Positions 2,877 through 55,656 of a DNA stretch of 64,000 nt are shown here, piece after piece; within the stretch, counting starts at the first letter, position 1, and every line of letters starts with the position of its first letter. This stretch comes from a virus: positions 1-64,000 of the IMG/VR virus record IMGVR_UViG_3300049927_000163. One strand, written 5' to 3'. The position numbers and the translations under genes are program-made. Under the pieces are notes generated by a model that was not told the DNA's origin, searched no databases, and was given only the letters and a program-made list of their open reading frames with translations.

Positions 2877-5066
2877 TTAATTTTGTCTTACGATGAAATA
2901 AGCATATGTAGATACATCGCCCGTTTGCGTCGAACCAGGCGTGCCCACAATCAGTGATGTGACAGTAAAGCTTGTCGCATTGATGATTGTGTATGATAAC
3001 TCACCAAGTGTTGTAGATGCCGCTACACCAATTCTCTGTAGGAATATCCTATCAGCAGTTGCAATGTTTGTATTAGCGATTGTCTGAGTACCAGCAGTTA
3101 GAACACCTGTACCGATAAAGTCAGTTACTGCACCGCCATTCAATTGGAGCTGAGTAGCTACGTTACCTAGGATTAGGTTACCGTTTACAGTTGCACCACC
3201 TGAACCTGTGTTCAAGACAAGGGCTGTTGCGCCTGTTATGTTACCAATTGTGATTGTTCTAGCCGCAGCACCTGTACCAATGTTAATTGCTTGAGCAACA
3301 GCATTGTTACCAACGTTAATCGCAGCTGCTGAGCTATTAAGGCTTAGAGCACCAACTGCATCAACTGTTACAGCCGCACCACCTGATACTGCAATAGCAC
3401 CTGATAGAGCATTACCAATTGTTACTGTTCCTGTGGATGTACCTGAGTTAATCGCTGTGTTAGAGTTTTGGCTAGCGTTGATACTTGCTACGCCTAAGAT
3501 ATTCACTGTTGTTGCGCCATCAGCGTTACCAACTGTCATCGTCTTAGTACCAGTACCAGTCAGAACGTTCAGGGCCATTGTACCAGCAGCTCTATTGCCA
3601 GTAGCAATTGCTGTGGTATGTGTACCTGAAGTTACAGCACCTGTAGCGATGTTAGTAAGCACTTGGCCTAGGGTTACACCACCTGAGTTAACATTGACTG
3701 TTTTTACACTGTTTGCGTTGGTTGTAGCACCGCCTGTACCTAAGTTCAAAGTATCAGTTACAGCAGCTACAACAATTGTTCCACCGGAAACTGTAGTTGT
3801 ACGCGAAGCAGCAGGAGCAATATTGCAAAGATCTGCAGTAGTTACACGAGTATTATTACCGATTGCAAGGACACCCGCACCCGCAGTACCAATACCTGAC
3901 ATGATGTTTACTGTTGTATTACCAACAGACGCACCGTTTGAAATACTGACCGTTTGAGTAGAAGTGTTTATGCCATTGCCAATTAGGATGGTATTTCCAT
4001 CGATACCATTACCGATATTAATAGCTTTTGTACCATTGCCAGTAGCTGCGTTCAGAGTGATAGTTCCAGAAGCGGCATTGCCTGATAGAATGTTGACAGT
4101 TGAATCACCAGCAGAGGCACCAGCTGCAATATTGACTACTTGCGCACCAGTATTGACAGCGTTACCAATGTTGATAGTCTGACCAGAAGCTGAAGTACTA
4201 CGACCTAGAGTGATTGTTCCAGTTCCGACAGCGCCACCTAGAGTAATGGTACCAGAGGTCATCGCATTACCGATTGTCACTGAACCTGTAGTTTGTGTGT
4301 TGCCTATTACGATGGTGTTGGCTCCAGAGCCTCCAACTGTGATTACACGGGCAGTTGTACCGATTGCCAGGTTAACTGCGGCTGCATCATTATCGGAACC
4401 AAGGCCTAAAGTTGTGCCAGCAGTTTTGATATTGGCTGATGCATTGAATGTCGCAAGACCTGAAAAAGTTGTAGCTCCTGCAATTGAAAGCGCGTCATCT
4501 AAAACAACTGCGCCTGTCACATCTAAAGTGCCAGGAAGATCAAGACTATTTGACCAGATTGGATCAGCAGCAGATTGTCCGATTAAAACCTGGTTAGTTG
4601 AACCTACAGCAGTTGGAGTCACTACACCAGTTCCAGAACCAAGCATGATACCATGGTCTGTGATAGTTGTAAGACCGGTTCCCCCTTCAGAAACATCAAG
4701 TGCGGTGGAGAAAACAAGAGTTGTAGCAGTAAGAGTAGTGAATGTACCAGCACCTGGAGTAGTCGTTCCAATATCGCCCGGAGCGGCCATAATTGAAGGC
4801 AGGTTTGATGGTACTAGAGCAAGATTAGTAGCAACTTGTGCAGCGGCTTCGCCATTGGTAGCAATTTCGATCAATCCAGGAACAGTAGTAGAGGCTAAAA
4901 CTCCCCCAGAGAGCGCCACTTGGCTAAGACCATAAGGTGTTACAGCTATTTCTCTATAGTTAGCTGGATTTGGTGTAACTGTTTCTGCGGCAGTTGCAAA
5001 ACGGGTAATTCCAACGGTTTGTTCACTCGCTGGAACTGCACCAAGATAGGAAAGTGGTGAAGACAT
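2877..5066 (-). CDS. Long tail fibre/tailspike (beta-helix-like INIG/VTIG repeats)
   Basis: 729 aa, G/T/N/A-rich periodic repeats; N-terminal ASEQTVGITRFAT / ASTTVPGLIEIAT fibre repeats. Confidence 0.75.
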   Translation of the reverse strand: MSSPLSYLGAVPASEQTVGITRFATAAETVTPNPANYREIAVTPYGLSQVALSGGVLASTTVPGLIEIATNGEAAAQVATNLALVPSNLPSIMAAPGDIGTTTPGAGTFTTLTATTLVFSTALDVSEGGTGLTTITDHGIMLGSGTGVVTPTAVGSTNQVLIGQSAADPIWSNSLDLPGTLDVTGAVVLDDALSIAGATTFSGLATFNASANIKTAGTTLGLGSDNDAAAVNLAIGTTARVITVGGSGANTIVIGNTQTTGSVTIGNAMTSGTITLGGAVGTGTITLGRSTSASGQTINIGNAVNTGAQVVNIAAGASAGDSTVNILSGNAASGTITLNAATGNGTKAINIGNGIDGNTILIGNGINTSTQTVSISNGASVGNTTVNIMSGIGTAGAGVLAIGNNTRVTTADLCNIAPAASRTTTVSGGTIVVAAVTDTLNLGTGGATTNANSVKTVNVNSGGVTLGQVLTNIATGAVTSGTHTTAIATGNRAAGTMALNVLTGTGTKTMTVGNADGATTVNILGVASINASQNSNTAINSGTSTGTVTIGNALSGAIAVSGGAAVTVDAVGALSLNSSAAAINVGNNAVAQAINIGTGAAARTITIGNITGATALVLNTGSGGATVNGNLILGNVATQLQLNGGAVTDFIGTGVLTAGTQTIANTNIATADRIFLQRIGVAASTTLGELSYTIINATSFTVTSLIVGTPGSTQTGDVSTYAYFIVRQN

Positions 5067-15856: not shown

Positions 15857-16567
15857 TTAACCGTTTGCTGAAGTATCTAGCAATGCATAGTAGTTCCATA
15901 CATCTGCAGTAGTAGTCATCAAATCTGTGCCCAAAGTAAGGCCAATAACACCATGGTTGTATAATGGTGTCATTTGGACTTGTGAGCCAAATTGTGTTGT
16001 TACAGGCGCACCAGTAATCACGTTGGCAATACCACCTGATACATACGTACTAAAAGCAGTAGAGTTGATATTGACAGTAAATGATGTTGTGCTAGTTACA
16101 GTTGTAATCTGACCACGTAGGGTATTGATCTGCTGCATACCAGCTACTTGACTAAATGTAACCCAAGTTACACCAATATCAGCTGAAGTAAAGCTATGAG
16201 TAGCAGTGATGCTAGCTTCAGCAGCTTTAGAGATTGCAGTGATGACAAGGTTAGTACTATGGTTCACATTGTAAGGAGCCTGATTAGGAATCCAAAGATC
16301 CTGATCAGCTGTTATAAATGGTGTAAATGCATTGGCTGTATGCCATGCAAATTCAATTGCTGGCTGACTAGCAGTATAGTCTGTAGAAAGACCAGTACCA
16401 TTTGCATATGTAGGAAACCATTCTGCTTTAACGATTTCATCGTTAACAGGGTTTATTGCATTGGTCTGGTTAACCATATAGAAGTAACTAGGGATAAATC
16501 CCAAAGTTAGATTCTGAGCTGCACCACCTAAAACAGTGGTAAAAGTTCCAGTTTTGATAATAGACAT
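15857..16567 (-). CDS. Capsid decoration-like protein with E1-FCCH-like insertion
   Basis: Immediately after the MCP; homologous to 53019..53615. Confidence 0.55.
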   Translation of the reverse strand: MSIIKTGTFTTVLGGAAQNLTLGFIPSYFYMVNQTNAINPVNDEIVKAEWFPTYANGTGLSTDYTASQPAIEFAWHTANAFTPFITADQDLWIPNQAPYNVNHSTNLVITAISKAAEASITATHSFTSADIGVTWVTFSQVAGMQQINTLRGQITTVTSTTSFTVNINSTAFSTYVSGGIANVITGAPVTTQFGSQVQMTPLYNHGVIGLTLGTDLMTTTADVWNYYALLDTSANG

Positions 16568-16569
16568 AG

Positions 16570-17529
16570 TTATGCTCCCAATCTTAAGGTGCTTGTGACT
16601 CTGGCGATCCAGTTGTCATTGATGATTCGTCCACCCCAAGGAATCTTGAAGCCAACTGATGATCTTTGATCAAGTGCATCAGTAGTACCTGCAGATCCTA
16701 GAGGCTTAACAATAAGTTGAGCTTGCATAGCACCTAGTTTCACTACACCATAAGCCTCACGGCCTACAACAAAGCTAGAGTAGACTGGTATTGCTGCACC
16801 ATTGTTGAAACCGTTGGTCGATGTCATCCATCGAATATTTCGGGTTTGGCCCCATTCTGGAAGCAGACTTGTGCTTTGATTCGCATAGTTTGCAACTGAA
16901 TTGAAGCTTGATACTGCCTCTAGATCCATCTCCATATCTGTAGACATAAAGCCCCAGAATGATTGACGGCCAGGAGCTGTTCCAAAACGGTTTTCACCTT
17001 GTACGAGCGGAGTTAGAAACTCAGCGTTACCTTGGCGAAGTGCTCTTTGAACAAGCTGTAGATCACGGTCTGTAATCTCTGTAGGAGTGTTACCGTTGAT
17101 ACCATTAGAGCACGCGATTGTTGATGCTGTTGAAACCATCATGTCGCGGATTAAAGTATCTAGGGTAAGACCTAGTTGTAATGAAAGAACTTTGGTAAGT
17201 TCATTCAAAACGCGGTCCTGCACTGTGTACTGAACTACATCAGATACGATCATATAGGCGCCATACCATGCGATCTTAGCGCTAAAGTCGATAACTGACT
17301 GTGATTGTCCAGGAGGAGATACCGCTTCTGTTAGAGGCGTTGTAGCCGCTGACTGTGTGCCATATCGTCTAAAGATCAATGAGTCACCTGAGTTCATTGG
17401 GATAACGCGCTGTTGTGCGCACTTATCATAAATGAGGGCAGGCGTAGCAAGTTTTAGCAGGAGTCTATCGTAATAGACACGTACTTCTGGTGGTACTGTA
17501 TTTGTGGTTACAGCATTTGGTGATGACAT
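16570..17529 (-). CDS. Major capsid protein, N4-gp56 family
   Basis: YYDRLLL...P.NSGDSLIFRRY...PLTEAVSP...YG...EWG..RW...G.EAYG...DALDQRSSVGFK motifs. Confidence 0.92.
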   Translation of the reverse strand: MSSPNAVTTNTVPPEVRVYYDRLLLKLATPALIYDKCAQQRVIPMNSGDSLIFRRYGTQSAATTPLTEAVSPPGQSQSVIDFSAKIAWYGAYMIVSDVVQYTVQDRVLNELTKVLSLQLGLTLDTLIRDMMVSTASTIACSNGINGNTPTEITDRDLQLVQRALRQGNAEFLTPLVQGENRFGTAPGRQSFWGFMSTDMEMDLEAVSSFNSVANYANQSTSLLPEWGQTRNIRWMTSTNGFNNGAAIPVYSSFVVGREAYGVVKLGAMQAQLIVKPLGSAGTTDALDQRSSVGFKIPWGGRIINDNWIARVTSTLRLGA

Positions 17530-17543
17530 AAGTTACTCTTTAC

Positions 17544-18302
17544 TTACATCCCGCTCTGGATTCTTTGATACTCGGCTTCAAATTCTTCATCTGACATCGT
17601 CGCGTAGTCTTTTACTGCATGGAATGATCCCTGTCCCCCAGTCATTGAAAGTGAACCAGGTTTACGGGAATTCTCTACAATCCTAGTGGCTGACTTAGAG
17701 ACAGTAGGAGGAGCTACAGGAGCGGGCATCTGATTTTGTCTGCCTTGTTTTGCAAGTGACCCAATATCATAGGCATATTGCCAAGGATCTTGAGCCGCAT
17801 GGAATCCAGCTGCGAGATTAGGTTTTTCTCTAATTAGGGGCGCGGCGTACTCATCCAGCACCTCTTTATAATCAGGATACTTAACTGCCATTCGGAGTTC
17901 TGCAATCTCACTTTCCATAGCCTTTTGCCTTTTAAGCATTTCACCTTCTTGATGCTGGTAAACTCCTACTGGAAGAGCGTCCTCACGGTCGAGATCTTCA
18001 ATTGGGTTTTTGTTTACCTGCGGTTCAGGAATGTTTTGCTTATGTAAAGTTGCTTTCCAGATCTCAAAATTTTGTTTAAGTTCTTCCTTTTCTCGTCGTT
18101 CTCGAGCAAGCTCTTCCCTGATTGCCACGATGTTCCTATCGATCGGTAATTCAGCAGGGGAGATGGGTTCCTGTTCTTGAACCTTAGGATTTACTGCCTC
18201 TACGCGATCTAAGTCATCTTGGTATGCCAAGTAAGAATTATGCCCTTTTACTTTTGGACTCACGGCGGCTGAGTCTGGTACGCCCGCTTCTTCTGTAATC
18301 AT
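17544..18302 (-). CDS. Scaffolding protein
   Basis: Acidic coiled-coil upstream of the MCP; KYPDY...AY...KPGSLS...MSDEEF C-terminus. Confidence 0.75.
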   Translation of the reverse strand: MITEEAGVPDSAAVSPKVKGHNSYLAYQDDLDRVEAVNPKVQEQEPISPAELPIDRNIVAIREELARERREKEELKQNFEIWKATLHKQNIPEPQVNKNPIEDLDREDALPVGVYQHQEGEMLKRQKAMESEIAELRMAVKYPDYKEVLDEYAAPLIREKPNLAAGFHAAQDPWQYAYDIGSLAKQGRQNQMPAPVAPPTVSKSATRIVENSRKPGSLSMTGGQGSFHAVKDYATMSDEEFEAEYQRIQSGM

Positions 18303-18339
18303 TTATTTTCCTGTAGGTCGGCGACACCTGTATACGCCC
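18257..18339 (-). promoter_or_regulatory. Two GGGCGT-N4-stem-(GYCGCCG loop) RNA elements flanking the scaffold start codon
   Basis: Hairpins GACTCA-GCCGCCG-TGAGTC (18257..18275) and AGGT-GTCGCCG-ACCT (18315..18329), each preceded by GGGCGT; covarying copies in B. Confidence 0.7.
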
Positions 18340-18352
18340 TTTTTAGGAGAGG

Positions 18353-18715
18353 CTATGTATAGCCTAAGTTAGTTCTTTTACCTTGTTCCGCTACGCTTAC
18401 TATGAGGTCTTTTGGATCATCTGATAGGAAACGAGGGTCAATCGGCATGTCTGGTGGACTTGATAGCTCCTGGACCAGATCACATATTCCAAGTTTGTTA
18501 TTCACATACCATACAAGTACACCTATCATGAATGGTGGCCTTTGATGGTAAGCTTTAACAGTCTGGTTAATCTTATTAGGGGTAAGACGATCTACAGTGG
18601 CGTAATAAACGACATAGAATGGCTCTTTGATGTGAGACATTTTGTGGACGAAATCGTACACATAGTTCATACATCCTTCTGCCATACTTTCTCGGACATC
18701 ACCCATTTGTAGCAT
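18353..18715 (-). CDS. Conserved hypothetical head-operon protein
   Basis: EP(F/Y).V...KAY..RP...G..V..VNN..G motif shared with 55297..55656. Confidence 0.7.
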   Translation of the reverse strand: MLQMGDVRESMAEGCMNYVYDFVHKMSHIKEPFYVVYYATVDRLTPNKINQTVKAYHQRPPFMIGVLVWYVNNKLGICDLVQELSSPPDMPIDPRFLSDDPKDLIVSVAEQGKRTNLGYT

Positions 18716-19351: not shown

Positions 19352-19597
19352 ATGCTTTTTGTGGCCAATGTGATAAGAGATGCAAAATTGAAAAGTGCGA
19401 GTGTGATAATGAAAAAGAAAAGTAAAGATCAAAAGTCTGAAAAAGAGGACTTTATGACCAAGAAAGATCTAAAAGATTCTAAGCATCAAGGCATGCTGAA
19501 TACTATGGATGAAGTCTGTGAAAAGCTAAATCAGGCTGGATATGGGCCTTTTGCTTGGGAAATTGTTATTAAACGAAATGTTAAATATGATATTTAA
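19352..19597 (+). CDS. Hypothetical protein (accessory island)
   Basis: ORF in the + strand island; true start probably downstream. Confidence 0.4.
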   Translation: MLFVANVIRDAKLKSASVIMKKKSKDQKSEKEDFMTKKDLKDSKHQGMLNTMDEVCEKLNQAGYGPFAWEIVIKRNVKYDI

Positions 19598-19618
19598 ATA
19601 AAGGTACTGTAAATAATT

Positions 19619-20365
19619 ATGAATGAAGATGTAAAAATACATTCAACAATTGAATATTCACAATTTAAACTCTCTCCTAAAAATAGGAAAGTATGTGAAA
19701 AACATGTTAAAGATTTATCTGAAACAATAAGAAAAAGCAATCAATTAGATGTAAATCCAATAATCGTAAATTTTGATAATGAAATTGTCTCTGGACAACA
19801 TAGGTGGTTGGTAGCACAAAAATTAAAAGTACCAATTTTTTATATTAGAAAAGATGTACCTGTAGAATATTTTTTGACAGCAAATCTAAATCAAAGACGA
19901 TGTGAGCAAGTGGATGCAATCAAATTTTATTCAAATGTAATGAAATTTCCTGATTATATTAAATTAAATAATATTTTAACAACTTCAAAAGCTTCTCCTG
20001 GAGTTATTTGTAGTTTACTTGGAATTACATCATCATGTGGATATAGCGATATGATTAAAAGTGGAAAATTTAAATTTAAATATGATGAAGAAAGATGTAA
20101 TTTTATGTTATCAAAATATATAGAAACTAGAAATTTACTCGATACACTTCCATTTATGGTAAGAAGTGCTTATCGGGGTATAAATTTTTGTAGAGGATTT
20201 AATCTTTTATTTGAAGAAAAAATTGATTGGAAGATTTTTGAAACTAGACTTCGTATAAATTACAAAATGTTAGATATAGTTTTACATACCGGACCTCTTT
20301 GGCTTAAAAGATTTAAAGAAATGTATAATAAAAGAGCTATTGTAAATAGATTGATAGAGGAGTAG
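19619..20365 (+). CDS. ParB/Srx-like N-terminal domain protein
   Basis: NRKVCEKHVKDL...PIIVN...IVSGQHRWLVAQKL motif; very AT-rich. Confidence 0.75.
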   Translation: MNEDVKIHSTIEYSQFKLSPKNRKVCEKHVKDLSETIRKSNQLDVNPIIVNFDNEIVSGQHRWLVAQKLKVPIFYIRKDVPVEYFLTANLNQRRCEQVDAIKFYSNVMKFPDYIKLNNILTTSKASPGVICSLLGITSSCGYSDMIKSGKFKFKYDEERCNFMLSKYIETRNLLDTLPFMVRSAYRGINFCRGFNLLFEEKIDWKIFETRLRINYKMLDIVLHTGPLWLKRFKEMYNKRAIVNRLIEE

Positions 20366-20679
20366 ACGAATGATTTTATTAGATCATTGCACAAGTTGTT
20401 ATCCTACACTGAATCAAGTTCCATGGTGGTGTGGCTTTGCAATATTCTTTATCACACTCTTTACACTGATAGGTCTATTTACTGTTTTATTTTATATAAG
20501 CAAGAAAATATGTGGAAAATAATGCATGCATTTAGAAAAAAACAATTCATCGGTACAGGTATCACACATCGCCTATGCACATGGCCACCTGATGATTTCA
20601 ATGGCACTTTGAGGAAGATAAAGGAAGCCAATCAATACATGAAGACTTTGGATAAGAAAACTTTGGATGAACTGAAACT

Positions 20680-20997
20680 ATGAAATGCCATAACTGCTCT
20701 AAAGACTTAGACTTTATTCCTGCAAGCGAGGCTGATATATTCTGTTCGGGCATTTGCAGGCGCAAGGCTCAAATAAATGGATGGCGGATTGGTGAATATA
20801 GAGCTCCTAAAGTAAACCCTGAAATTACGGCTTCTATGAAGAAATGGGATGAAGTGTATCAGAGGTATATCAACGGAACAGCTACTAGACATGAAATGAT
20901 ACTTGCTATGCAATGGTGTTTGAAGGTCGATAGATATGAAGAAGAGCGTAAGACATTTGCCTATATGAAAAAACGTGAAGGATTTTTTGAGGAATAA
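20680..20997 (+). CDS. Hypothetical Zn-finger protein
   Basis: CHNC...FCSGIC. Confidence 0.45.
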   Translation: MKCHNCSKDLDFIPASEADIFCSGICRRKAQINGWRIGEYRAPKVNPEITASMKKWDEVYQRYINGTATRHEMILAMQWCLKVDRYEEERKTFAYMKKREGFFEE

Positions 20998-21199
20998 CAT
21001 GTTAATAACCATATGTTTTGTAATAGTTATATTAATAAATATATATTATATTATAAGCATTAAATATAATTTCTTTAGGGTATATAAGGATATTCGTGAT
21101 TTTGCAGAAGTTAACGTGAAAATGGTTGCTTGTATGGTTGAACTACATGAAAGAATTCAAAAACTAGAGGATAAAAATGGAATATCCAAAGATAAATAG
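20975..21199 (+). CDS. Small membrane-anchored coiled-coil protein
   Basis: N-terminal hydrophobic helix, C-terminal ELHERIQKLE. Confidence 0.45.
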   Translation: MKDFLRNNMLITICFVIVILINIYYIISIKYNFFRVYKDIRDFAEVNVKMVACMVELHERIQKLEDKNGISKDK

Positions 21200-21848
21200 C
21201 CTATATAAAAGAGAAGATGTCACACTAGATCCTGTAACTGGAAAGAATTTATTTAGCAAATCAAAGAAGCATAAGTTAGTCATTGGTGACTATGCCCTTG
21301 AGGAATTTGGTCTTATTAACTCGTGGCAGGTTTTTGAGAAAATCGATGGGACCAATATCCGCATTACTTTTAAAAAAGAAGGAATTCTTGAAGATGTTAG
21401 GTTTGATGGACGCACCAATAATGCACAAATACCTACCCATTTGATTAAATACCTACAAGACAAGTTCACTATTGAGAAGTTGTCAAAATATTTTGAGGAA
21501 GATGGCACATATATTCTATTTGGCGAGGGATTTGGCCCAAAAATACAAGATGGTGGCAATTATCGTTTTGATGTCTCATTCATCCTTTTTGATGTGTTTA
21601 TTTCTCCCTGGTGGCTAAATTATGAAAGTCGTCTTCAAATAGCAGATTATCTAAGCATTGAACATGTACCTTTTCTTGGAGAAATGAATGAAAGTGAGAT
21701 ATTGCATTACATCAGATCGAAGCCAAAAAGCACTATTTCAGTCAATAAAGATTATGTCATGGAAGGGGTAGTTTGTAGATCAGAACCTTTGCTTTGTCTG
21801 AGGAATGGGGATCCATTGAAGTTTAAACTTAAATGTGTGGATTTATGA
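21177..21848 (+). CDS. ATP-dependent RNA ligase (Rnl2-like nucleotidyltransferase domain)
   Basis: Motifs EKIDGTN (I), LFGEGFG (III), FILFDV (IIIa), EGVVCR (IV), KFKLK (V). Confidence 0.85.
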   Translation: MEYPKINSLYKREDVTLDPVTGKNLFSKSKKHKLVIGDYALEEFGLINSWQVFEKIDGTNIRITFKKEGILEDVRFDGRTNNAQIPTHLIKYLQDKFTIEKLSKYFEEDGTYILFGEGFGPKIQDGGNYRFDVSFILFDVFISPWWLNYESRLQIADYLSIEHVPFLGEMNESEILHYIRSKPKSTISVNKDYVMEGVVCRSEPLLCLRNGDPLKFKLKCVDL

Positions 21849-22014
21849 AACGTATTTTTACAGTTCGAAGGTACCAAATTGGGTTTTTTGGATCTTTAAT
21901 AGTACATGATGTTAAGCTTAAATTATCTAAGAGACTTTATAAAAAAGTAATTCGTAATGTTGGACGAGTAAAAATAAGATGTAATAAGAATTATTCTTAC
22001 CCAAGATGTATTCT

Positions 22015-22087
22015 GGCCACATAGCTCATGCGGTAGAGCACTCGTCTGTTAAATGAGCGGTCGTTGGTTCGAATCCAACTGTGGCCT
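22015..22087 (+). tRNA. tRNA-Asn(GTT), no encoded CCA
   Basis: GGCCACA/TGTGGCC acceptor, GCTC..GAGC D arm, CTCGT-CTGTTAA-ATGAG anticodon arm, GTTGG-TTCGAAT-CCAAC T arm. Confidence 0.9.
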
Positions 22088-23344: not shown

Positions 23345-25459
23345 TTACACTCCTGTTTCTGAAGTCATAGGCTGTTGCTCTGCCATCTGCATCTCATGCT
23401 GGCCTCGATCAATGTCATGGTTCATTCTGTGTTGGTCAAGTTCAGTTTTAGCCAAACTATTAAGCATATTTAGCTTTTCCATGAGTTGGGAATGATCAAT
23501 ACCTTGGAGCTCTTTTACAGCTTTTACAATATTCAAGAGTTCAGCGGTCTTCTCTTCTTCTGCGCGGGATATTCTCTCTGCATTTAATGCTTGGTCAAGG
23601 TGAATTTTGTTAAGCCTTTCAGCTGCAAGGGCTTGGTCACTTTGCGCCTTTGCCTCTATGCCATCTGTTGCAACACGGAGCTGCTCCATCTCAAGAGCTT
23701 CTTGCTTCTGTTGGAACTGTTGCTGTTGCTCGGCTTGAGCATCAAGGATTTCATTGAGCTCAACTTTTCCGTGGAGGTTTGAATTCTTGACAAGTAGACT
23801 ATCTGGGATGTTGACACCAAGTTGTTTGAGGGCGAGAAGCTGCATAAATTGAGATTGCCTCTGTGTATCTGTCAAGATACCTTCCTCAACGACGATATCA
23901 TAGTTATAGAAGTTCTGAGAGAAGAATTCAGGTGGACATTGTTTCTTTGTGATCTTCTGGATTTTTTCAGAGGACCAGTTCGCTTGAATCATTTTAAGGA
24001 CTTTCTGGCCTATGAGTTGCTGGGTCTCTGCTAAGCCATCAAAGAGACGTCGTAATGACACCAGACCGGCGTTAACACGCATTTTAGCTAGTATTGCTGC
24101 GGTCTCTAGATTTGGATTCTCTGGCATACCAAGCATTTCAGGGTTTATGCCTAGAATATTCGGAATATCTTTTTCGAAAGCATCCATAAGAGCAAAGTGG
24201 CCAGGAGGGATATCGGCGGGAGCAAGTTTCTCAACATCTGTCATCTGTGCGGTGGGTTTCATAAATATTACTGGACCTTGTCCAGATTTGAATAGGGAAG
24301 CGGAGTTTTCTACGGAACCTGATTTAGCTTTCCAGCCAGGGTAGGCTTGAGAGTCGAGAATATCCACCATCTTAGAACGTCTTTTATTGAGCTCTAGTTG
24401 GGGGTCACGGATTAAACGTATGAGACTCTGCATTTTCCATTGGAATAGGTCATAGGAAGGCTCATAGATAGCAAATATTGGCGTTTGAGCGTAGTCATTG
24501 ATGCCATAGGGGTCTACACCATAATAAAGTAGCTGATTTTCAACGATAATACCAAGGTTGACTTGTTGTACCGGCTTCTTGATTAGCTGCATGTTGGGCA
24601 TCATAGCCTGGATGTAGGACAATCTCTCACGAGTGCCTTTCCATTCAGAGGTTTCTCCTGTAGCCATATCGACGAGCACGTCTTTTGTCACCCAAGATTT
24701 GGTCCAGTATTCCGTGTATGACATTAATTTATTGAAAGCTCCCTGGCGAACGTATGGCATATAGGTGAATTTATTATCACGAGTTCCGTAACTTAATCTT
24801 TTAATTACATCTTCTTGCTCGGGAAGAAGTGAGATGACATCAGTTCTAGAGATATACTTGCGTCTAGCAAAGAAATTACAATCTGATAAGTCTTTCTTGT
24901 AAAAGAATGGGTCCCAAATGGTGTCGTTCCAGTGGTCCAGGTTGAAAGCTACTTCGCCATTTACTGGATCGTTACGGTAGTCCATATAGGGAGATATCCA
25001 GGATACTCCTGTCACCATCGCATCCTTGAAGCCAGTGGATAGTGTCTCATAGAAGTTTCCACGATTGTTGGCGTACTGGATGCAGTCTGTGGCAATATCA
25101 GCTATAGCATTCTGGTCATCTTGGACGGGGGATATGATTGTAGCGAGTCTATTTTGCCTTTGGATACCCTCGATAAGGTTTATCATCCTCATACACATAT
25201 TGTACGTGAGGGCTAGGCGTTGTTGATCTGCTAGATATTTTACTTGATTCAGGTCCCACTGATTGCCTAGATAGAATGATTGATCACGGTAGGCTTCGGC
25301 ATAGTATGGATTAATCATTTGATAGGCACGGTCATAGCGTTCCCCGAACATATTGACAATGTCGTAGCCTTCATCAAGACGGGGTTGTACTGTTTTTCGC
25401 TTGTAATCTGAGAGGAAGTCTTCGGCATTGCTAACTAGGGACGCTTCGGGGAGGCTCAT
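23345..25459 (-). CDS. Portal protein (P22-like)
   Basis: FYLGNQW...N...MINLIEG.QRQNR...DPQLELNKRRSK...Q-rich C-terminal barrel helix. Confidence 0.9.
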   Translation of the reverse strand: MSLPEASLVSNAEDFLSDYKRKTVQPRLDEGYDIVNMFGERYDRAYQMINPYYAEAYRDQSFYLGNQWDLNQVKYLADQQRLALTYNMCMRMINLIEGIQRQNRLATIISPVQDDQNAIADIATDCIQYANNRGNFYETLSTGFKDAMVTGVSWISPYMDYRNDPVNGEVAFNLDHWNDTIWDPFFYKKDLSDCNFFARRKYISRTDVISLLPEQEDVIKRLSYGTRDNKFTYMPYVRQGAFNKLMSYTEYWTKSWVTKDVLVDMATGETSEWKGTRERLSYIQAMMPNMQLIKKPVQQVNLGIIVENQLLYYGVDPYGINDYAQTPIFAIYEPSYDLFQWKMQSLIRLIRDPQLELNKRRSKMVDILDSQAYPGWKAKSGSVENSASLFKSGQGPVIFMKPTAQMTDVEKLAPADIPPGHFALMDAFEKDIPNILGINPEMLGMPENPNLETAAILAKMRVNAGLVSLRRLFDGLAETQQLIGQKVLKMIQANWSSEKIQKITKKQCPPEFFSQNFYNYDIVVEEGILTDTQRQSQFMQLLALKQLGVNIPDSLLVKNSNLHGKVELNEILDAQAEQQQQFQQKQEALEMEQLRVATDGIEAKAQSDQALAAERLNKIHLDQALNAERISRAEEEKTAELLNIVKAVKELQGIDHSQLMEKLNMLNSLAKTELDQHRMNHDIDRGQHEMQMAEQQPMTSETGV

Positions 25460-38678: not shown

Positions 38679-39977
38679 TTAAACCACTGTTATGTTTCCG
38701 ACGCTACCATAAACCTGCCAGACTGAAGATGAACCACCAGTTACGCATACTAGTTGCAAGGAATCTCTTATGGCAGTAGATGCAAGAGATCCACCTGTTC
38801 CAGCAGTTGTAGAGCTAGTACCGAAGAAGATTTGTTGTGATGCATTTTGGGAAATCTTCCACCCGAGGGCAATGTTAATACCAGTCACGTTGAATAAGTC
38901 ACCAGCTGTAGAAGAAGCAGGCAAAGTGAGCGTTAGCAATGTGCCCTTATTACAGATATATCCATGACTTGCAACAACTGATTGATCTGCAGTAATCACT
39001 GACCAAGTTAGGCCACCTGCTGCTGGAGCAGAGCTTACCCAGTTCGTTCCGTCACTCGTCATGACATTGCCAGATGTTGAAGGCACTGCATAAGTTTCTG
39101 TTGAAGCCACCCAATTCGTTCCATCGGCCACGATAATTTTACGTATGGTTGCGCTCGCATTGGGGAACGTTGGCGTCGAAGCCACCCAATTCGTACCGTC
39201 CGCCACTAAGACCTTAGATGTGCCTGTAGCGACTGAGGGGTATGTTGCGGTCGAAAAACTTGGCGCTGCTGAGGCATTGGATTGTAGTACGTTACCTGTT
39301 GTACCAGGACCTGCAAGGATAGCTGGTATACCTGTGTTACCTGTTGTAAGTAGACCGTTATTTCCTGTAGCGAGGCCTGAAATTACACTTGTTGCAGAAG
39401 AGTATAGTATCTGATTGACAGTAGTAGTTGCAGGATAGGTTGCAGTTGTTGCCACCCAGTTTGTTCCATCTGCTCGAAGGATTGTTCCGGTACCTGTAGC
39501 GACTGAGGGGTATGTTGCGGTCGAATAGGTAGGATCGGCAGAAGCACCACCGGATTGTAAGACTTGGCCTGTGCTACCTGCTGCCGTTGCAACTACTGCA
39601 CTTGTAGCTTGACCAATGACTACGCCATGGTTCGTTAATGTAGTAGCTGAAGGAGGTCCAGAAACGTTGATTGTAGCAGTTCCTCCAAGAGATACTGGAG
39701 AACCTGACACTGATACATTAGTGCCATTAGAAAGCGTAATTTGGCCAGATCCTGGAAGGGCGCCAGCTGGTATTGCACCAAAAGATGGATCTCCTCCGGT
39801 ATTGCCATTAAGGACTTGATTTGTTAGTCCTGCTGTAAGAGAAGTAATAGCATTAGTTGTTGATCCTACAAGAACTGCATGATTTGTTACAGGAAGACCT
39901 GAGAATGTAGAAACTCCATCAAATCTCATAATCCCAGGAGTTGTCAAATTTAAACTATTTGCCGGTGTGCCTACCAT
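38679..39977 (-). CDS. Tail fibre protein (B copy of 687..1982)
   Basis: Near-identical protein to 687..1982. Confidence 0.8.
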   Translation of the reverse strand: MVGTPANSLNLTTPGIMRFDGVSTFSGLPVTNHAVLVGSTTNAITSLTAGLTNQVLNGNTGGDPSFGAIPAGALPGSGQITLSNGTNVSVSGSPVSLGGTATINVSGPPSATTLTNHGVVIGQATSAVVATAAGSTGQVLQSGGASADPTYSTATYPSVATGTGTILRADGTNWVATTATYPATTTVNQILYSSATSVISGLATGNNGLLTTGNTGIPAILAGPGTTGNVLQSNASAAPSFSTATYPSVATGTSKVLVADGTNWVASTPTFPNASATIRKIIVADGTNWVASTETYAVPSTSGNVMTSDGTNWVSSAPAAGGLTWSVITADQSVVASHGYICNKGTLLTLTLPASSTAGDLFNVTGINIALGWKISQNASQQIFFGTSSTTAGTGGSLASTAIRDSLQLVCVTGGSSSVWQVYGSVGNITVV

Positions 39978-48529: not shown

Positions 48530-49074
48530 GTCTGATTCTCAAGCTCCTGACCAATATATTCCATATAACCTACAAATCCACCACCAGTAAAAGACACCAT
48601 TTGGATTGGATTCAAGCCAGAACCACACTCAAGGACTTTCCCTTTTATGGTGTTTGGCTGGCAATTCCAGACTAGATATGTATACCCCGCTGTAAAGACA
48701 TTATCGCTGCTATTAGACTGCATAACGCCAACCCAAGGCGTACCCTGGCTGTTAGCGGATTGATAAGGCATCTCAATAACAACATCGGCTGAAACAGAGA
48801 GAAACGACCAAGCAATATCCATCCAAACTTGAGTCATAATTCCTGATCGACGAGTCCAGCCATATTGTTTGGTGTATGTGACACTCGAATCGCTTACATT
48901 ATAAAGTTTTGGTGTCCAAGGTTTAATCCATCCATTTACATTCTGAGCAACTTGCTGGTATGTATCTGTCATTTTATCTATGAGGTCGCCCATATATTCT
49001 TTGAACTTTGCGGGGTTCTCATCTACAAAAGTCTCAGGTCGGTACGGGTATATTATATCAGTTGGAAGAGTCAT
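48526..49074 (-). CDS. Putative tail needle/plug protein (B)
   Basis: Syntenic with 10627..11067; different C-terminal domain. Confidence 0.45.
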   Translation of the reverse strand: MTLPTDIIYPYRPETFVDENPAKFKEYMGDLIDKMTDTYQQVAQNVNGWIKPWTPKLYNVSDSSVTYTKQYGWTRRSGIMTQVWMDIAWSFLSVSADVVIEMPYQSANSQGTPWVGVMQSNSSDNVFTAGYTYLVWNCQPNTIKGKVLECGSGLNPIQMVSFTGGGFVGYMEYIGQELENQT

Positions 49075-51083
49075 TAACCACCTATCATTCGATTGCCAGA
49101 AGGTTTAAACCAGGGCATAATCGCGTTAATTCTTAAATTATCATCTATACCACTATTGGTAATTCTAATGTAATGCTCATAGCCTTTTCCGCCAGCATAG
49201 GCTCTCTTCCAAGTTTTATTATTATTGTATGCTCTAAGGGAAATTTGTCCACCACCTTCATAAAAGCTAAAGGAAGAGGCATTTATACCATCGAGTGAGA
49301 AAGTATCATCATCAATCACAGTTATTGTGTACGGTCCTCCGGTAAGTTCTTGCATACTATCTAAATTATAAATATATACTTGATCTCCCGTAGACAGTCC
49401 GTGCTGAGCTACATTGATATCAACATCCTCAACAGTATCAGGTATAATATTAATTATATCTCCTAAATAACCAAGATTAGGGAGACAATTCATAGTCTGA
49501 ATTGCATATGGAGTGACAATATCATCGCAGAAAAATTCAACTGTGAAAAATGTATCTTGATCTGAGTCTACATAGAAATCAACATAGCCCATTTGACACT
49601 GGAGTCCTTGATCTTTATATGGGTTCCAGCTTGCGCTCATTATTGTAAGATCTATAGGATTTCCTAGATCATCGCCACCCTCTTCGAGGAAAAGAACGCG
49701 TCCAATTTGATCACCACCAATAAATTTTTCATCACCCGACTGGAAGAATCCTGAACCCCACGTTGCCTCGGCAGCTTGGGAAAAGGAGATATCTAAGTCA
49801 TTAGCCGCTATAAAATCCTGGAAGGCATAATCACGACTTGTTTCGGCATATCCAAGAGTACTCATATTTATATAAGAGTCACTATCCTCATCAAAAACAT
49901 AGGCTGTATAGATAGAGTAACCGTTATCTTCGTCTGTTCGAACTAAAGCAAAATTTGAAGTCTGCGGGTTTTCTAAGATATCAAAGTTAACACTTGAAGA
50001 AGGATATAAAGTTAAAGAGTGGAGTAAATTGAAATTTCTAGCTGAATACATTTGTCCGAAAGCTTCATCATTGATAGCGTCTGACATAAAGTTTGCTATT
50101 CTTTCGTCTACTCTCACCACTTCATTGCGATCGCAAGCAACAATACCGCGCTTGCCAAAAGATACAACATATCTATCATATTCAATATCCGCGTAAGGGG
50201 CTTCACATGCACGAAAACTATTAATACGAACCCATCTAAAGGGCAGAGCAGGATCGGATGTAGGTTCAATTACCCATACAGAATTTGTAAATTTCACCAC
50301 AATACAATCAGAAAGAAGTGTGGCAGAAATCATTTGTTCCGATGTTGGGGCATCTACAAAACCACCATTACCAGGGGTAATCTCGTTCCAGTTTTCACCT
50401 GAATCGGCTGGATTGCCAGCTCTTGACCATCGCAAACGTTGTGAGAAATTTGTACCCGAACCAATTGGAGGAGTTCCAACGGGAGCTACAGTTGATTCTA
50501 CTGTATTTAAAACAAGAAGGCGTTGACGAAAAGCAAAAATAAACTGCGCTGCGACTATATAATTTCTAGTGGCAGATACTGAAGGGGGCTGACTATCGGG
50601 AAGAAATTCATTCGTTGTTGTTCCAGTAGTAAATGATCTCATTGGAGAAATAGGAACACTAGTATCTCCATTGAAGTTTGTAAAATAGAAGGTACTCGTT
50701 GGAAATGAGCCAGTACGACCAAATGAGGCTGAATTTATAAACGAAGAAACTGATCCATTGAATATATCTACTGTATCTAGCGGATCAAAAGTTTGAGTTC
50801 CTTGATTAAAAATAGCCGCTCTTTTAGTGTCGAAAATAAGTAACTGACTTGCATTGTTAGTATCTACAAATGTTTTTATTCCCATGATTGGTAGTGTTCC
50901 GACAACATCTGGATCATAGATCATGGTTCCGAATTTAACCATGCCGGAACGTTTTATAATAACACCTTTATAGAGATAAGCGTTCACTATTTCAGTGAAA
51001 GCATCCTGGGGCAAAATCCATGGCTGAATTACCGTATCAAGACCAGTCGTAAATGCTGATATCAAATATGGTGTATATGTCAC
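49074..51083 (-). CDS. Tail nozzle/tubular protein B (B) with E1-FCCH-like insertion
   Basis: Ortholog of 11064..13388; GTG start; HGLSTGDQVYI...MQELTG..YTITVIDDDTFSL insertion. Confidence 0.65.
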   Translation of the reverse strand: MTYTPYLISAFTTGLDTVIQPWILPQDAFTEIVNAYLYKGVIIKRSGMVKFGTMIYDPDVVGTLPIMGIKTFVDTNNASQLLIFDTKRAAIFNQGTQTFDPLDTVDIFNGSVSSFINSASFGRTGSFPTSTFYFTNFNGDTSVPISPMRSFTTGTTTNEFLPDSQPPSVSATRNYIVAAQFIFAFRQRLLVLNTVESTVAPVGTPPIGSGTNFSQRLRWSRAGNPADSGENWNEITPGNGGFVDAPTSEQMISATLLSDCIVVKFTNSVWVIEPTSDPALPFRWVRINSFRACEAPYADIEYDRYVVSFGKRGIVACDRNEVVRVDERIANFMSDAINDEAFGQMYSARNFNLLHSLTLYPSSSVNFDILENPQTSNFALVRTDEDNGYSIYTAYVFDEDSDSYINMSTLGYAETSRDYAFQDFIAANDLDISFSQAAEATWGSGFFQSGDEKFIGGDQIGRVLFLEEGGDDLGNPIDLTIMSASWNPYKDQGLQCQMGYVDFYVDSDQDTFFTVEFFCDDIVTPYAIQTMNCLPNLGYLGDIINIIPDTVEDVDINVAQHGLSTGDQVYIYNLDSMQELTGGPYTITVIDDDTFSLDGINASSFSFYEGGGQISLRAYNNNKTWKRAYAGGKGYEHYIRITNSGIDDNLRINAIMPWFKPSGNRMIGG

Positions 51084-51739
51084 TAAACCCGTCCCCCAAA
51101 AACAGCAAAGCAAAATCCAACGTCATCAACAACAAAATCATTACTAGAAAAACTATATCTTTGCATCTGCACACTAAAATCAGCCGCAGTTTGACCGAAA
51201 AGTAAACTTACATATGCTGAGGTTCCACCTGTATTTCTTGGTGTAAGTAGAATAGAATAGTTATCTGCCGAAGTCATAGGATCTGTGAAAGTTACTGTAT
51301 AGTTACCAGAACCAGAACCATTTCTTACAGCGCTTGCTATACCATAAGAACCGGCTTGTAAAACTCCATTAGAAGCTACTCGGCCCTGTGCGGAACAAAA
51401 TGCTTGCTGAGTATTTACAACTTGAAATGCGCCTGTTTGTAATCGTATATCTGAACCGTATAGAGGCTGCGTCCAGTATCCAACTCCTCCACCATTAGTC
51501 AACCTAGTGACATTAGAATTATCATCTTTAAAGAAAAGTTCAGTAAATCCAGATCCGTTAAGTTTAGTAAAAATTAATCCGGATCCTGCGATACCTCCCG
51601 GATCTCCTAATCTAAATGCTAGTTGCCATTTTCTACTAGGAACAGCACCTCCCTCTATAGCCTGCCAGTTAGCTTGGAATAGAGCAGGGGAAAGCCTAAT
51701 CTTAGTTGCATTCGTAGGTTGTGTAGGATCCCAAGACAT
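51083..51739 (-). CDS. Tail fibre-like protein (B)
   Basis: Syntenic with 13388..14071; shares the N-terminal P.P and TELF; different C-terminus (GNYTVTFT.PM....Y). Confidence 0.55.
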   Translation of the reverse strand: MSWDPTQPTNATKIRLSPALFQANWQAIEGGAVPSRKWQLAFRLGDPGGIAGSGLIFTKLNGSGFTELFFKDDNSNVTRLTNGGGVGYWTQPLYGSDIRLQTGAFQVVNTQQAFCSAQGRVASNGVLQAGSYGIASAVRNGSGSGNYTVTFTDPMTSADNYSILLTPRNTGGTSAYVSLLFGQTAADFSVQMQRYSFSSNDFVVDDVGFCFAVFGGRV

Positions 51740-53018: not shown

Positions 53019-53615
53019 TTAACAAACTGAATTGTCGCCTTTAACGTTAGCGACCATTACATCGCCATCTGTACCGACAACACCTGTACCAATTAAGATA
53101 CCTTGGATACCAAAGTTCTCAGTTGGAATTGGGTTACCTGCTGAATCTTCAACACGGCTTGCAACACCACCAGACACATAGGCGCTATAGCCTACTGTAC
53201 TTTCTACAAGTGTGATTGCAGTTGCTGTAACAGATGCTACAGTGTATGTACCGTTCAACGATGCAGTTCCTGCACCATCATCAGCTAATTCTGCTACTTT
53301 AATTGTGTCACCTGCAACGATGCCAACTAGAGCAATATTACTTGCTGTAATGACACCAGGGTTTGCGTTAGTGAAACCGCTGATAGTAGCTCCATAGATT
53401 GATGATGTTGATAAAGGTGTAAAACCGTTTGATGTGGTTACTGCACCAGTATCTACTGTCTGATAGTAGCCGTTAGGCATTGCTGAGTTCCAATAGTAGG
53501 ACTTTCCATCCGTAAGATTGGTCGTTTGAATCTCAGAAATTGCAAAGCCAATGCTTTGATGCCTAGCTACTGCTGGGGTTGGATTTGTCCAACCGAATGT
53601 TTTTGCTTGTGTCAT
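53019..53615 (-). CDS. Capsid decoration-like protein with E1-FCCH-like domain (B)
   Basis: ISGFTNANPGVIT...LNGTYTV...YSAYVSGG; follows the MCP. Confidence 0.55.
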   Translation of the reverse strand: MTQAKTFGWTNPTPAVARHQSIGFAISEIQTTNLTDGKSYYWNSAMPNGYYQTVDTGAVTTSNGFTPLSTSSIYGATISGFTNANPGVITASNIALVGIVAGDTIKVAELADDGAGTASLNGTYTVASVTATAITLVESTVGYSAYVSGGVASRVEDSAGNPIPTENFGIQGILIGTGVVGTDGDVMVANVKGDNSVC

Positions 53616-54589: not shown

Positions 54590-55240
54590 TTAACCCATAT
54601 TCCTTGCAGCAAACTTCATGAAATCCGAATCGTTCATAGTCTTATATGCCTCTCCAGTAATACCAGACGTGGCACCTCCAATGGAGGAGAGATTCCCTGG
54701 TCTTTGCAAGTTTTGAGTAGCTTGCTGAGCCTGTGGAGATCGATTTTGTTGTCTTTGTTCTTGGAGATAAGTGTCTGAACGTTTTGCAAGATGATACGCC
54801 GCCTTATAAGGGTTGGGCGCACTCATGATCATTTCTTTAAGATCTGGGTCGGTTTTTAAAACATCCGGTAAATATTTTCTGACCACATCATTATAATCTG
54901 GGTATGCTTGAGCCATCTTCAGTTCTTCTACAGCGAGTTTTTGTTCGTGAGAAAATTGATTTATGAATTTCTTAGCTTCTCCGACAGTGAGCACGTCATT
55001 GTCAGATAAACCATTAAATTCATCAGGTGGTGCGGCTTTAGCGTTGTTAGCTTTCAGCAACTCCATGTGGTCTTGCATTAACTTCAGATTTTCTTGAAGT
55101 TGTTGGCGCTCGCGCCTTTCTGCTTGTAAAGCGGCTACTGGAACTAATTGTTCTTGTTGCTGCTCATGCATTGGCTGCTGAGTGTTAAGATCAGTCTGAA
55201 CGGCGGCTTCAGATGTAACGCCCGTCTGCATTGGTTCCAT
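54590..55240 (-). CDS. Scaffolding protein (B)
   Basis: VP..ALQAER.ERQ, YPDY..V, AY.LAK, RPG.LS, M.DSDF; start re-set to MEPMQTGV. Confidence 0.75.
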   Translation of the reverse strand: MEPMQTGVTSEAAVQTDLNTQQPMHEQQQEQLVPVAALQAERRERQQLQENLKLMQDHMELLKANNAKAAPPDEFNGLSDNDVLTVGEAKKFINQFSHEQKLAVEELKMAQAYPDYNDVVRKYLPDVLKTDPDLKEMIMSAPNPYKAAYHLAKRSDTYLQEQRQQNRSPQAQQATQNLQRPGNLSSIGGATSGITGEAYKTMNDSDFMKFAARNMG

Positions 55241-55296: not shown

Positions 55297-55656
55297 TTAA
55301 TTATAAACATAAGCATCAGGGATCGATGTCTCGTAAACTTGACACCCTTCCTGTTCTACTCCTAACAATTCAAATCCGAATGGTTTGTCTGGCATATTGA
55401 CTTCCCAACGAATTGTTCCTTTTTGGTTGTTTACCTCTCCTACGATCATACCCACTTGTCGTTGCGGTCTCATCCCGTAGGCTTTAATGACTTTGGCTAA
55501 TGCGGGTAATCCGTTATGTTTGCGCTTCGAGGGACTAGCAAATAAAACAATCCAGTAAGGCTCGGTGCGGTCTTTATTCGCATTCAGCATTTTCTCGATT
55601 ATTTTTTCATCATCCTCAACAATCGCTTTTGATGTTTCCCCTACTTCTTGAGTCAT
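55297..55656 (-). CDS. Conserved hypothetical head-operon protein (B)
   Basis: Ortholog of 18353..18715. Confidence 0.7.
   Translation of the reverse strand: MTQEVGETSKAIVEDDEKIIEKMLNANKDRTEPYWIVLFASPSKRKHNGLPALAKVIKAYGMRPQRQVGMIVGEVNNQKGTIRWEVNMPDKPFGFELLGVEQEGCQVYETSIPDAYVYN

Follow-up and report, generated by a model that had tools for sequence, protein, structure and literature searches.

How does a phage adjust the amounts of its head proteins once their common message has been transcribed? The scaffold and the capsid protein are both needed in large, balanced quantities, and the transcript that encodes them also specifies low-copy proteins such as the portal; the post-transcriptional means by which phages set these ratios are mostly unknown. 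The question is raised in concrete form by the viral record IMGVR_UViG_3300049927_000163 of the IMG/VR collection, a 73.5-kb virus contig with two full morphogenesis modules, of which we analyzed positions 1 to 64,000 (the window, 64 kb in length). An earlier note, made from the letters of this stretch alone, had pointed to a pseudoknot-like RNA motif repeated around the start codons of its two putative scaffold genes, here called A and B. We conclude that the repeated modules are very small RNA pseudoknots, situated where translation of the mRNAs for phage head genes is initiated, and that, although the assignment is a tentative one, they most likely serve as a translational operator. The comparative analysis establishes the element as a structure of RNA, located on the mRNA strand, that is specific to the starts of scaffold and capsid genes and that lies, in two clades, at a fixed distance from the Shine–Dalgarno sequence (SD); we infer that it acts in cis after transcription.

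As deduced from the alignments, the module is a hairpin of 3–8 base pairs (bp) with a loop of 7 nucleotides (nt), positions 3–6 of which pair with a single-stranded flank of 4–5 nt. The flank is found either 3–11 nt 5′ of the stem or 2–11 nt 3′ of it (more where an additional hairpin has been inserted), and the whole module occupies about 20–35 nt. In the window, the strings quoted in the earlier note are all exact on the minus strand, which is the mRNA strand at sites A and B, where every gene lies on the minus strand. The composite GGGCGT-N4-stem-7 nt loop-stem′ was located three times in the window by a script, always at a scaffold start. Taken singly, its words are present at chance level (GGGCGT, 8 occurrences versus 7.7 expected; GYCGCCR, 10 versus 7.4), and the signal therefore resides in the composite and its placement. 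The note had counted four repeats of one unit. Three of these are indeed GGGCG-spacer-hairpin units, but the fourth, upstream of gene B, is a hairpin paired with a GGGCG on its 3′ side (Table 1).

A covariance model of the module within the open reading frame (ORF) was built from relatives of the two loci and run on the window, on the whole record and on complete related genomes. Beyond the three units in the window, the next best match in the 64 kb reaches just 12.1 bits (E 0.15). The model finds one strong site per head module in the whole record and nothing else, and one strong site per genome in four of five complete relatives. Both in-ORF modules of the window start 18 nt inside the ORF and, together with the upstream module, bracket the ribosome-binding site. 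At site A the upstream module is non-coding, 2 nt separate the end of its 3′ arm from the SD (AGGA, 18312–18309), and the in-ORF unit spans codons 6–15, with its loop GCCGCCG (18269–18263) read as Ala-Ala-Val. At site B the upstream hairpin begins directly after the stop codon of the preceding 119-residue ORF, and a whole extra hairpin separates it from its flank; comparable insertions are seen at six other loci (L071, L073, L099, L115, L122 and L145; L numbers designate individual loci of our set).

A capsid-based search of viral contigs yielded 63 loci related to A (57–83% identity) and 80 related to B (67–96%). A hairpin with the loop G.CGCC. is present at the scaffold 5′ end in 131 of the 135 A- and B-family loci that have a scaffold frame, and 86 of them have at least two, so that the positional conservation at homologous scaffold starts on which the earlier note had staked its proposal is borne out. 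Three loci without a hairpin (L070, L114 and L143) have short or cut scaffold frames of 135, 127 and 189 codons, and in two cases the frame begins right at the edge of the locus. When every G.CGCC. loop closed by a stem of at least 3 bp is counted, the sense strand contains 220 in the 48 kb of scaffold-start zones versus 10 in the other 770 kb; by the same definition the antisense strand has 4 in the zones versus 32 outside them.

The stem of these hairpins changes freely in sequence and nonetheless remains paired. When 105 distinct in-ORF units are aligned, the inner four stem pairs are formed in 100, 105, 105 and 105 of the rows, each by 4–6 different types of pair. The covariation score of the stem is 0.485, as compared to 0.114 for shuffled alignments (none of 500 as high) and at most 0.18 for slid controls. 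Since the third position of one codon pairs with the second position of another, these changes alter the encoded amino acids, and the peptide is variously Pro-Ala-Ala-Val, Pro-Ala-Ala-Gly or Ser-Ala-Ala-Glu. We take such covariation as the mark of selection on a nucleic-acid structure. In 137 units that were defined without any stem condition (115 of which have at least 4 bp), stem pairs 1–4 comprise 473 Watson–Crick, 39 G-U, 10 A-C and 26 other combinations; the excess of G-U over A-C, together with the invariable location of the element on the coding strand, argues for RNA rather than DNA. The earlier claim that the stems differ but still pair around a constant loop is thus upheld; its constant 4-nt spacer is not, the spacer ranging from 3 to 11 nt across the family.

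Because GGCG:CGCC never varies in the A and B families, these clades are silent on the second helix, the pairing of the loop CGCC with the upstream GGCG that would make the hairpin a pseudoknot. Support for this part of the original proposal comes from compensatory changes in more distant clades, sampled by capsid representatives with pairwise identities of 30–50%. Two loci (L148 and L150) have the flank GGUCG together with the loop GUCGACG, and in another (L153) a GUCG/CGAC unit stands in tandem with a canonical GGGCG/GUCGCCG unit on the same mRNA. The upstream hairpins of L148, L150 and L151 have loops of the form G-Y-CGUC-A followed 7–11 nt later by GGACG, a 3′ flank which in L148 overlaps the SD (AAGGACG), and GACG flanks accompany CGUC loops in L170, L183 and L186. 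The compensatory change in L148 again recodes the peptide, Gly becoming Val and Ala becoming Asp.

Among 199 distinct units picked regardless of the variable knot pair, the flank GxCG and the loop CGyC combine as G:C in 156, A:U in 16, U:A in 6 and U:G in 4, the last being a U-G wobble within the knot helix (GUCG:CGGC). In an unselected set of 73 hairpins, chosen only for a stem of at least 4 bp that closes a loop of 7 nt with the pattern YU....A, a fully paired 4-nt flank lies 6–11 nt upstream of 50, versus 22.6 ± 2.7 (maximum 32) in 1000 shuffles of the loop cores. A direct count of pairs on the same alignment, in which two flank registers are mixed, gave 59.9% and 45.8% paired for the knot versus 92.8% for the stem; such mixing blurs the direct count, and the register-free count was therefore used. 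By this comparative evidence three of the four knot pairs covary: one of them occurs as G:C, A:U, U:A or U:G, a second shows A:U and a third U:A. Both positions of the flank are genuine, the 5′ type being demonstrated by L153 and the 3′ type by L148 and L151. Hence the loop pairs with a strand outside the hairpin and does so with compensatory changes, as in an H-type pseudoknot, and the topology with a 3′ flank, whose connecting loops measure 2 nt, 1 nt and 2–11 nt, is the classical arrangement.

The placement of the modules follows a regular plan. In the A family the stop codon of the preceding gene is followed by GGGCG, 3–8 nt, hairpin 1, the SD, the ATG, 10–25 codons, a second GGGCG, 5–11 nt and hairpin 2. 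Relative to the ATG, the loop begins at −20 to −24 in hairpin 1, whose 3′ arm adjoins the SD, and at +33 to +78 in hairpin 2, where its phase is invariably GCC-GCC-G. The upstream order is mirrored in the B family, where hairpin 1 (which often includes the stop codon) precedes 2–4 nt, GGGCG, about 0–8 nt, the SD, the ATG, GGGCG and hairpin 2; in several members, site B of the window among them, a whole extra hairpin intervenes between hairpin 1 and GGGCG. Writing g for the flank and H for the hairpin, the two stand in a 1:1 ratio in 98 of 113 distinct zones (A family, gHgH 24 and gH 17; B family, HggH 50 and gH 7). The loop within the ORF is always in a single codon phase, read as Ala-Ala or Val-Ala. 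Thus the structure is at or next to the ribosome-binding site, as an operator should be, with hairpin 1 abutting the SD and the B-family flank lying about 0–8 nt from it.

The module is not confined to scaffold genes or to these two families. Podophages from soil and freshwater that belong to several clades possess it, with an identity of just 30–45% among their capsid proteins, and in one clade of 78 loci (around L186) it lies in the 5′ untranslated region of the capsid gene itself. These leaders contain tandem modules, up to three by strict count and four by eye in L252 and L253; in L248 a sigma-70-like promoter match at 1415–1444 (10/12, with 0.8 expected by chance) precedes the array. An A/U-rich stretch separates the array from the SD. 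The pairing words of the arrays are diverse: GGCG:CGCC occurs 26 times, GACG:CGUC 26 and AGCG:CGCU 20, versus 2, 0 and 0 in a downstream control window of the same size, and the rarer GAUG:CAUC (9) and AACG:CGUU (5) are both absent from the control. Some knot helices reach 5 bp (GGAUG:CAUCC in 7 units, GAACG:CGUUC in 4), and flanks with a following A pair with a U at loop position 2 (ACGA:UCGU in 7, GCGA:UCGC in 6). In the loci L248–L325, at about 1400–1600, successive modules tend to recur in the order AGCG, GACG, GGCG and then GAUG, GACG or AACG. The same loci share a conserved segment ahead of the start codon that ends in most rows with AGGAGTGTGTGTATG. In L249, L260, L262 and L263 some of the spacers of the array hold an extra inserted hairpin.

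What, then, do these pseudoknots do? We favor a translational operator because the upstream knot either adjoins the SD or extends into it and two knots bracket the ribosome-binding site; because loop positions 1, 2 and 7 and a central C-G are kept while the rest changes; and because, by analogy, the synthesis of the P22 scaffold is, to judge from the titles of the reports on it, autoregulated after transcription. The SD-adjacent pseudoknot would be stabilized by a host factor or by one of the phage's own head proteins (either free scaffold or capsid protein), the stabilized knot would limit access of the 30S subunit, and this limitation would match scaffold and capsid synthesis to assembly. 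A bolder and more specific version is possible but doubtful: the knots would be either the operator of an assembly-sensing feedback, in which unassembled scaffold or capsid protein binds and shuts off its own translation, or, alternatively, the counterpart in bacterial viruses of the nuclease-resistant pseudoknots that protect late mRNAs.

A number of observations weigh against an operator built of pseudoknots. With regard to function, the array of L249 ends about 55 nt before the SD, a poor fit to an operator of the ribosome-binding site; the start of the in-ORF module ranges from +18 to about +60, outside any fixed ribosome footprint; a close relative of A (L004) is without any module; and no binding protein was identified when the ORF of about 120 residues upstream of the scaffold gene was examined as a candidate. 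With regard to structure, GGCG/CGCC is invariant (105/105) in the A and B families and all of the knot covariation comes from more distant clades; 17 of the 199 units are incompatible with the pairing, several of these being background hairpins far from gene starts; and L274 twice has a GUCG flank with CGCC loops, and L322 a GCCG flank. Minimum free energy folds of regions A and B are not more stable than those of shuffled sequences (z 0.27 and 0.21). The topology with a 5′ flank leaves a single nucleotide, loop position 7, to cross a helix of 4 bp, which the rules for classical coaxial H-type knots make tight. Finally, the sequences are related, and the counts given above do not represent independent events.

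The main rival, itself rather unlikely, is that the knots protect the mRNA, blocking decay that depends on the 5′ end (scanning by RNase E or an exonuclease of the RNase J type) or marking a processed 5′ end, in which case, within the late transcript, the scaffold–capsid part would last longer than the upstream portal part and yield far more protein. The capsid-leader arrays suit this well, located as they are where the leader begins, right behind the sigma-70-like promoter match in L248, ending some 55 nt from the SD in L249, and composed of neighboring units with different words (AGCG, GACG, GGCG and GAUG), as would be the case for blocks that fold independently. The freedom of the helix sequence to change likewise suggests that shape outweighs base-specific recognition. 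The first module of the window, moreover, comes directly after the upstream stop codon, with no promoter or terminator match between those genes on the minus strand. Protection is less easily reconciled with the in-ORF module, an odd site for a nuclease block as it would be unwound by every ribosome, nor does it account for the constant distance of −20 to −24 between the upstream module and the start codon, which points instead to the ribosome-binding site.

An improbable alternative dispenses with any bound protein and makes of the knots an insulator or translation enhancer that, by locking up the flanking sequence, keeps the SD and start codon single-stranded in any sequence context and scaffold translation constitutively high. 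The modules do bracket an unstructured SD-AUG window in both clades, and the scaffold is needed in high copy number in P22-like assembly; but an insulator requires neither conserved loop positions 1, 2 and 7 nor a nearly fixed C-G core, both of which are kept over capsids only 30–45% identical, and many members (24 of the 113 zones, gH) have a single module. It is very improbable that the element is a ligand- or condition-sensing RNA beside the SD, that is, a riboswitch-like, ion-sensitive or temperature-sensitive pseudoknot: a small H-type pseudoknot adjoining the SD, with conserved unpaired loop positions, recalls switches of the preQ1-I type, but the module is very small, has few conserved unpaired nucleotides with which to form a pocket, occurs in arrays and inside ORFs, matches nothing in Rfam and belongs to a head scaffold gene with no obvious metabolite link. 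A DNA-level signal (inverted repeat, cruciform or single-stranded DNA hairpin), conservation of the peptide or mere chance is scarcely tenable and largely refuted by the strand asymmetry, for although in duplex DNA GGCG...CGCC likewise constitutes an inverted repeat and the in-ORF loop keeps one codon phase, the sense strand has 39 G-U versus 10 A-C pairs and a U-G wobble in the knot helix, there is no antisense enrichment (4 versus 32), the module also occurs in non-coding leaders, compensatory changes alter the peptide, and the model E-values in the window are 5e-9 and 4e-8.

Two further ideas were abandoned. The word ACGGGCG is complementary to the 1400 region of 16S rRNA, but pairing with the ribosome was dropped since the flank word varies together with the loop. 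The 16 nt that precede the upstream hairpin in the B family were considered as a phage promoter; they occur once in the window, and matches with up to 2 mismatches number 50 versus 49 expected. These 16 nt are instead the conserved C-terminus (Ala-Tyr-Val-x-x-stop) of the upstream ORF.

The novelty of the element was examined in databases and in the literature. Rfam 15 finds only a tRNA in the whole window at the gathering threshold; with E values up to 10 there is no match for region A, and for region B only a 9.7-bit Ocean-VII match on the opposite strand (gathering score 53.5). For ten related loci, at E up to 1, the sole match is an unrelated 29.9-bit Phe_leader inside a capsid gene. The comparison with Rfam for which the earlier note had called thus yields no matching family. 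A full-text literature search gave no description of a scaffold-associated RNA element. Fremin and co-workers (2023; PMC10690425) have catalogued 8495 candidate structured RNAs, named “DNAVirus_X”, from IMG/VR intergenic regions. The main text of that article contains no occurrence of “scaffold”, and six short strings of the upstream module are absent from its 6 searchable supplement files, the large alignment files lying outside this search. As the catalogue has the same data source and treats the same kind of object, the intergenic upstream module could be an anonymous entry there.

Small pseudoknots of this general sort are known from other mRNAs. The guanidine-II (mini-ykkC) riboswitch combines in a single leader two hairpins whose conserved loops, ACGR tetraloops, are identical, and the preQ1-I riboswitch is a tiny H-type pseudoknot that abuts the SD; the modules described here have instead 7-nt G-Y-CGCC-R loops, no A-rich tail and no Rfam match. 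In the leader of T4 gene 32 a small H-type pseudoknot is used for autogenous translational control, according to PMC535899, PMC3014915 and PMC10690425. The likeness lies in a small H-type pseudoknot in the 5′ leader of a phage mRNA and, in the capsid-leader clade, in the A/U-rich stretch before the SD. The product of the T4 gene is a protein that binds single-stranded DNA, whereas here head scaffold and capsid genes are concerned, and the present module is much smaller, is repeated in 2 to about 5 copies, has two permuted topologies and has one copy within the ORF. The gene 32 knot is stated to have no Rfam model (PMC10690425). The Escherichia coli genes rpsO (S15) and rplT (L20), according to PMC3985624 and PMC1888825, have pseudoknots at or near the ribosome-binding site that are bound by the protein which thereby represses its own translation, and the L20 mRNA has two binding sites. 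The location of the knot at or near the ribosome-binding site is the feature shared with our modules; theirs, however, are host ribosomal-protein genes with rRNA-mimicking knots, ours flank the ribosome-binding site rather than span it, and there is no similarity in sequence or in Rfam. The functional resemblance is greatest to T4 gene 32 and to these ribosomal-protein operators, but the element is a member of none of these families.

For the P22 scaffolding protein gene, autoregulation and post-transcriptional modulation are named in the titles of Wyckoff and Casjens (1985) and Casjens and Adams (1985), as cited in PMC5529062 and PMC2115188. P22 resembles the present phages in its gene order (terminase, portal, scaffold, coat) and in the class of gene concerned; the start of its gene 8, however, is without the module, and the link to its scaffold autoregulation is one of analogy only. 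To our knowledge, no RNA operator has been defined for P22 and its scaffold autoregulation has never been tied to an RNA element. By eye there is no module at the gene 8 start (NC_002371, 3800–4040), and a search of 9 kb of P22 by the covariance model with its filters off gave no match near 3893, where gene 8 starts, the best elsewhere being 11.9 bits.

Close cultured relatives were not found by DNA search, and by protein the identity is at most 31.5% among matches covering most of the query; a scan of metagenomes for relatives recovered only contigs already known. The canonical module is absent from the scaffold-like gene starts of Pseudoalteromonas phage vB_Pun_Y3, Stenotrophomonas phage StenR_269, Paenibacillus phage API480 and Bacillus phage Pascal. 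In API480 (L227), about 60 nt before the gene at 1532, there is a 7-bp hairpin with the 7-nt loop TCGCTGA; AGGCG comes 12 nt after it and immediately precedes the SD. The layout is that of a 3′-flank module, with the loop core shifted by one position and a G-U pair needed, so that a cultured phage may here possess a divergent analogue.

Table 1. Coordinates of the modules and of the adjacent genes in the window
Feature	Position	Strand	Remarks
Upstream module A, flank GGGCG	18339–18335	minus	Pairs with loop core 18323–18320, as inferred from covariation in relatives
Upstream module A, hairpin	18329–18315; stem AGGU 18329–18326 / ACCU 18318–18315, loop GUCGCCG 18325–18319	minus	16.9 bits, E 9e-3
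In-ORF module A, flank GGGCG	18285–18281	minus	Codons Gly-Val
In-ORF module A, hairpin	18275–18257; stem GACUCA 18275–18270 / UGAGUC 18262–18257	minus	40.7 bits, E 5e-9
Upstream module B, hairpin	55296–55284; stem CGA/UCG, loop GCCGCCA	minus	Homologous hairpin in B-family loci
Extra hairpin B, CUCGAU-UGCC-AUCGAG	55281–55266	minus	Between upstream B hairpin and flank (pseudoknot loop 3)
Upstream module B, flank GGGCG	55261–55257	minus	3′-side topology; 4 nt before SD AGGAG (55252–55248)
In-ORF module B, flank GGGCG	55223–55219	minus	
In-ORF module B, hairpin	55213–55195; stem UCUGAA 55213–55208 / UUCAGA 55200–55195, loop GCCGCCG 55207–55201	minus	37.5 bits, E 4e-8
Scaffold gene A	ORF 17544–18302, 252 residues; ATG 18302–18300	minus	Assigned by position; no family match of the ORF itself
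Scaffold gene B	54590–55240, 216 residues; ATG 55240–55238	minus	Assigned by position
Major head protein A	16570–17529	minus	phrog_1357; scaffold gene A directly upstream
ORF of about 120 residues ahead of scaffold A	18353–18715	minus	No Pfam or PHROG family
ORF of 119 residues ahead of scaffold B	55297–55656; stop codon 55299–55297	minus	No Pfam or PHROG family

The ORFs of A and B are called scaffold genes because they lie directly upstream of the major head proteins (Table 1). The latter match phrog_1357 with E 9e-39 and 2.5e-44, and the database name of their close relatives, “N4-gp56 family major capsid protein”, agrees with the label given to them in the earlier note. The scaffold ORFs are 28% and the head proteins 45% identical; with head modules only 28–45% identical and five complete relatives that are genomes of 35–40 kb with terminal repeats, A and B represent two diverged phages and not a duplication. 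The record is probably two phage genomes joined (window 1–37400 versus 37400–64000), possibly an assembly chimera formed via a shared tail-fiber region, and a tail-fiber-like gene is in fact 93% identical between its two halves (687–1982 and 38679–39977). A host assignment from two binned contigs of metagenome-assembled genomes was judged unreliable.

Ahead of the scaffold gene there is always the conserved ORF of about 120 residues, of which the A and B loci supplied 111 distinct sequences; its stop codon lies inside or beside the first pseudoknot. Its AlphaFold model is one helix and a four-stranded sheet (mean predicted local distance difference test score, pLDDT, 79.6); considered as a candidate RNA-binding factor, it gave no Foldseek match in the PDB at E ≤ 0.001, the best VIA-align Z being 4.7. 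In phage A a plus-strand island (19352–22087) interrupts the minus-strand head block between the portal (23345–25459) and the scaffold region; it holds an RNA ligase domain protein (21177–21848, PF09414) and a tRNA-Asn (GTT, 22015–22087), and phage B has no counterpart of it. Downstream of the capsid genes, minus-strand structural proteins at 15857–16567, 49074–51113 and 53019–53615 match the Pfam domain E1_FCCH (PF16190; E 3e-9, 2e-8 and, weakly, 2e-3). For virion proteins of a phage the label is a strange one, and it probably reflects a small beta-barrel decoration or fiber domain. At many loci the capsid match extends over 1100–1400 nt instead of about 940, or is split (L041, L045, L046, L054, L055, L060, L067, L118, L119, L125, L143, L145, L297, L306, L317 and L319), which suggests introns, inteins or insertions of homing endonucleases; in Stenotrophomonas phage StenR_269 an annotated “intron homing endonuclease” lies directly upstream of the capsid gene.

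The pseudoknots at the head-gene starts thus form a new family within an already known class of elements, unusual in its permuted topologies, its copy within the coding sequence and its arrays with orthogonal pairing words, and the comparative support for it, covariation in both helices, is unusually clear. It is a candidate new RNA family for Rfam and possibly a small regulatory part for synthetic biology. Should the modules prove to be a feedback operator of scaffold or capsid synthesis, the scaffold autoregulation that was described in 1985 for P22 would for the first time have a defined RNA target, and the modules would provide a portable, re-codable mini-pseudoknot, the natural arrays demonstrating that its pairing word is freely exchangeable. 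The module offers a concrete and mutable target for the study of assembly-coupled translational control or of mRNA protection. For a large group of uncultured phages, it represents an apparently undescribed control element at the start of the head scaffold gene, one that probably sets the amount of head protein that is made.

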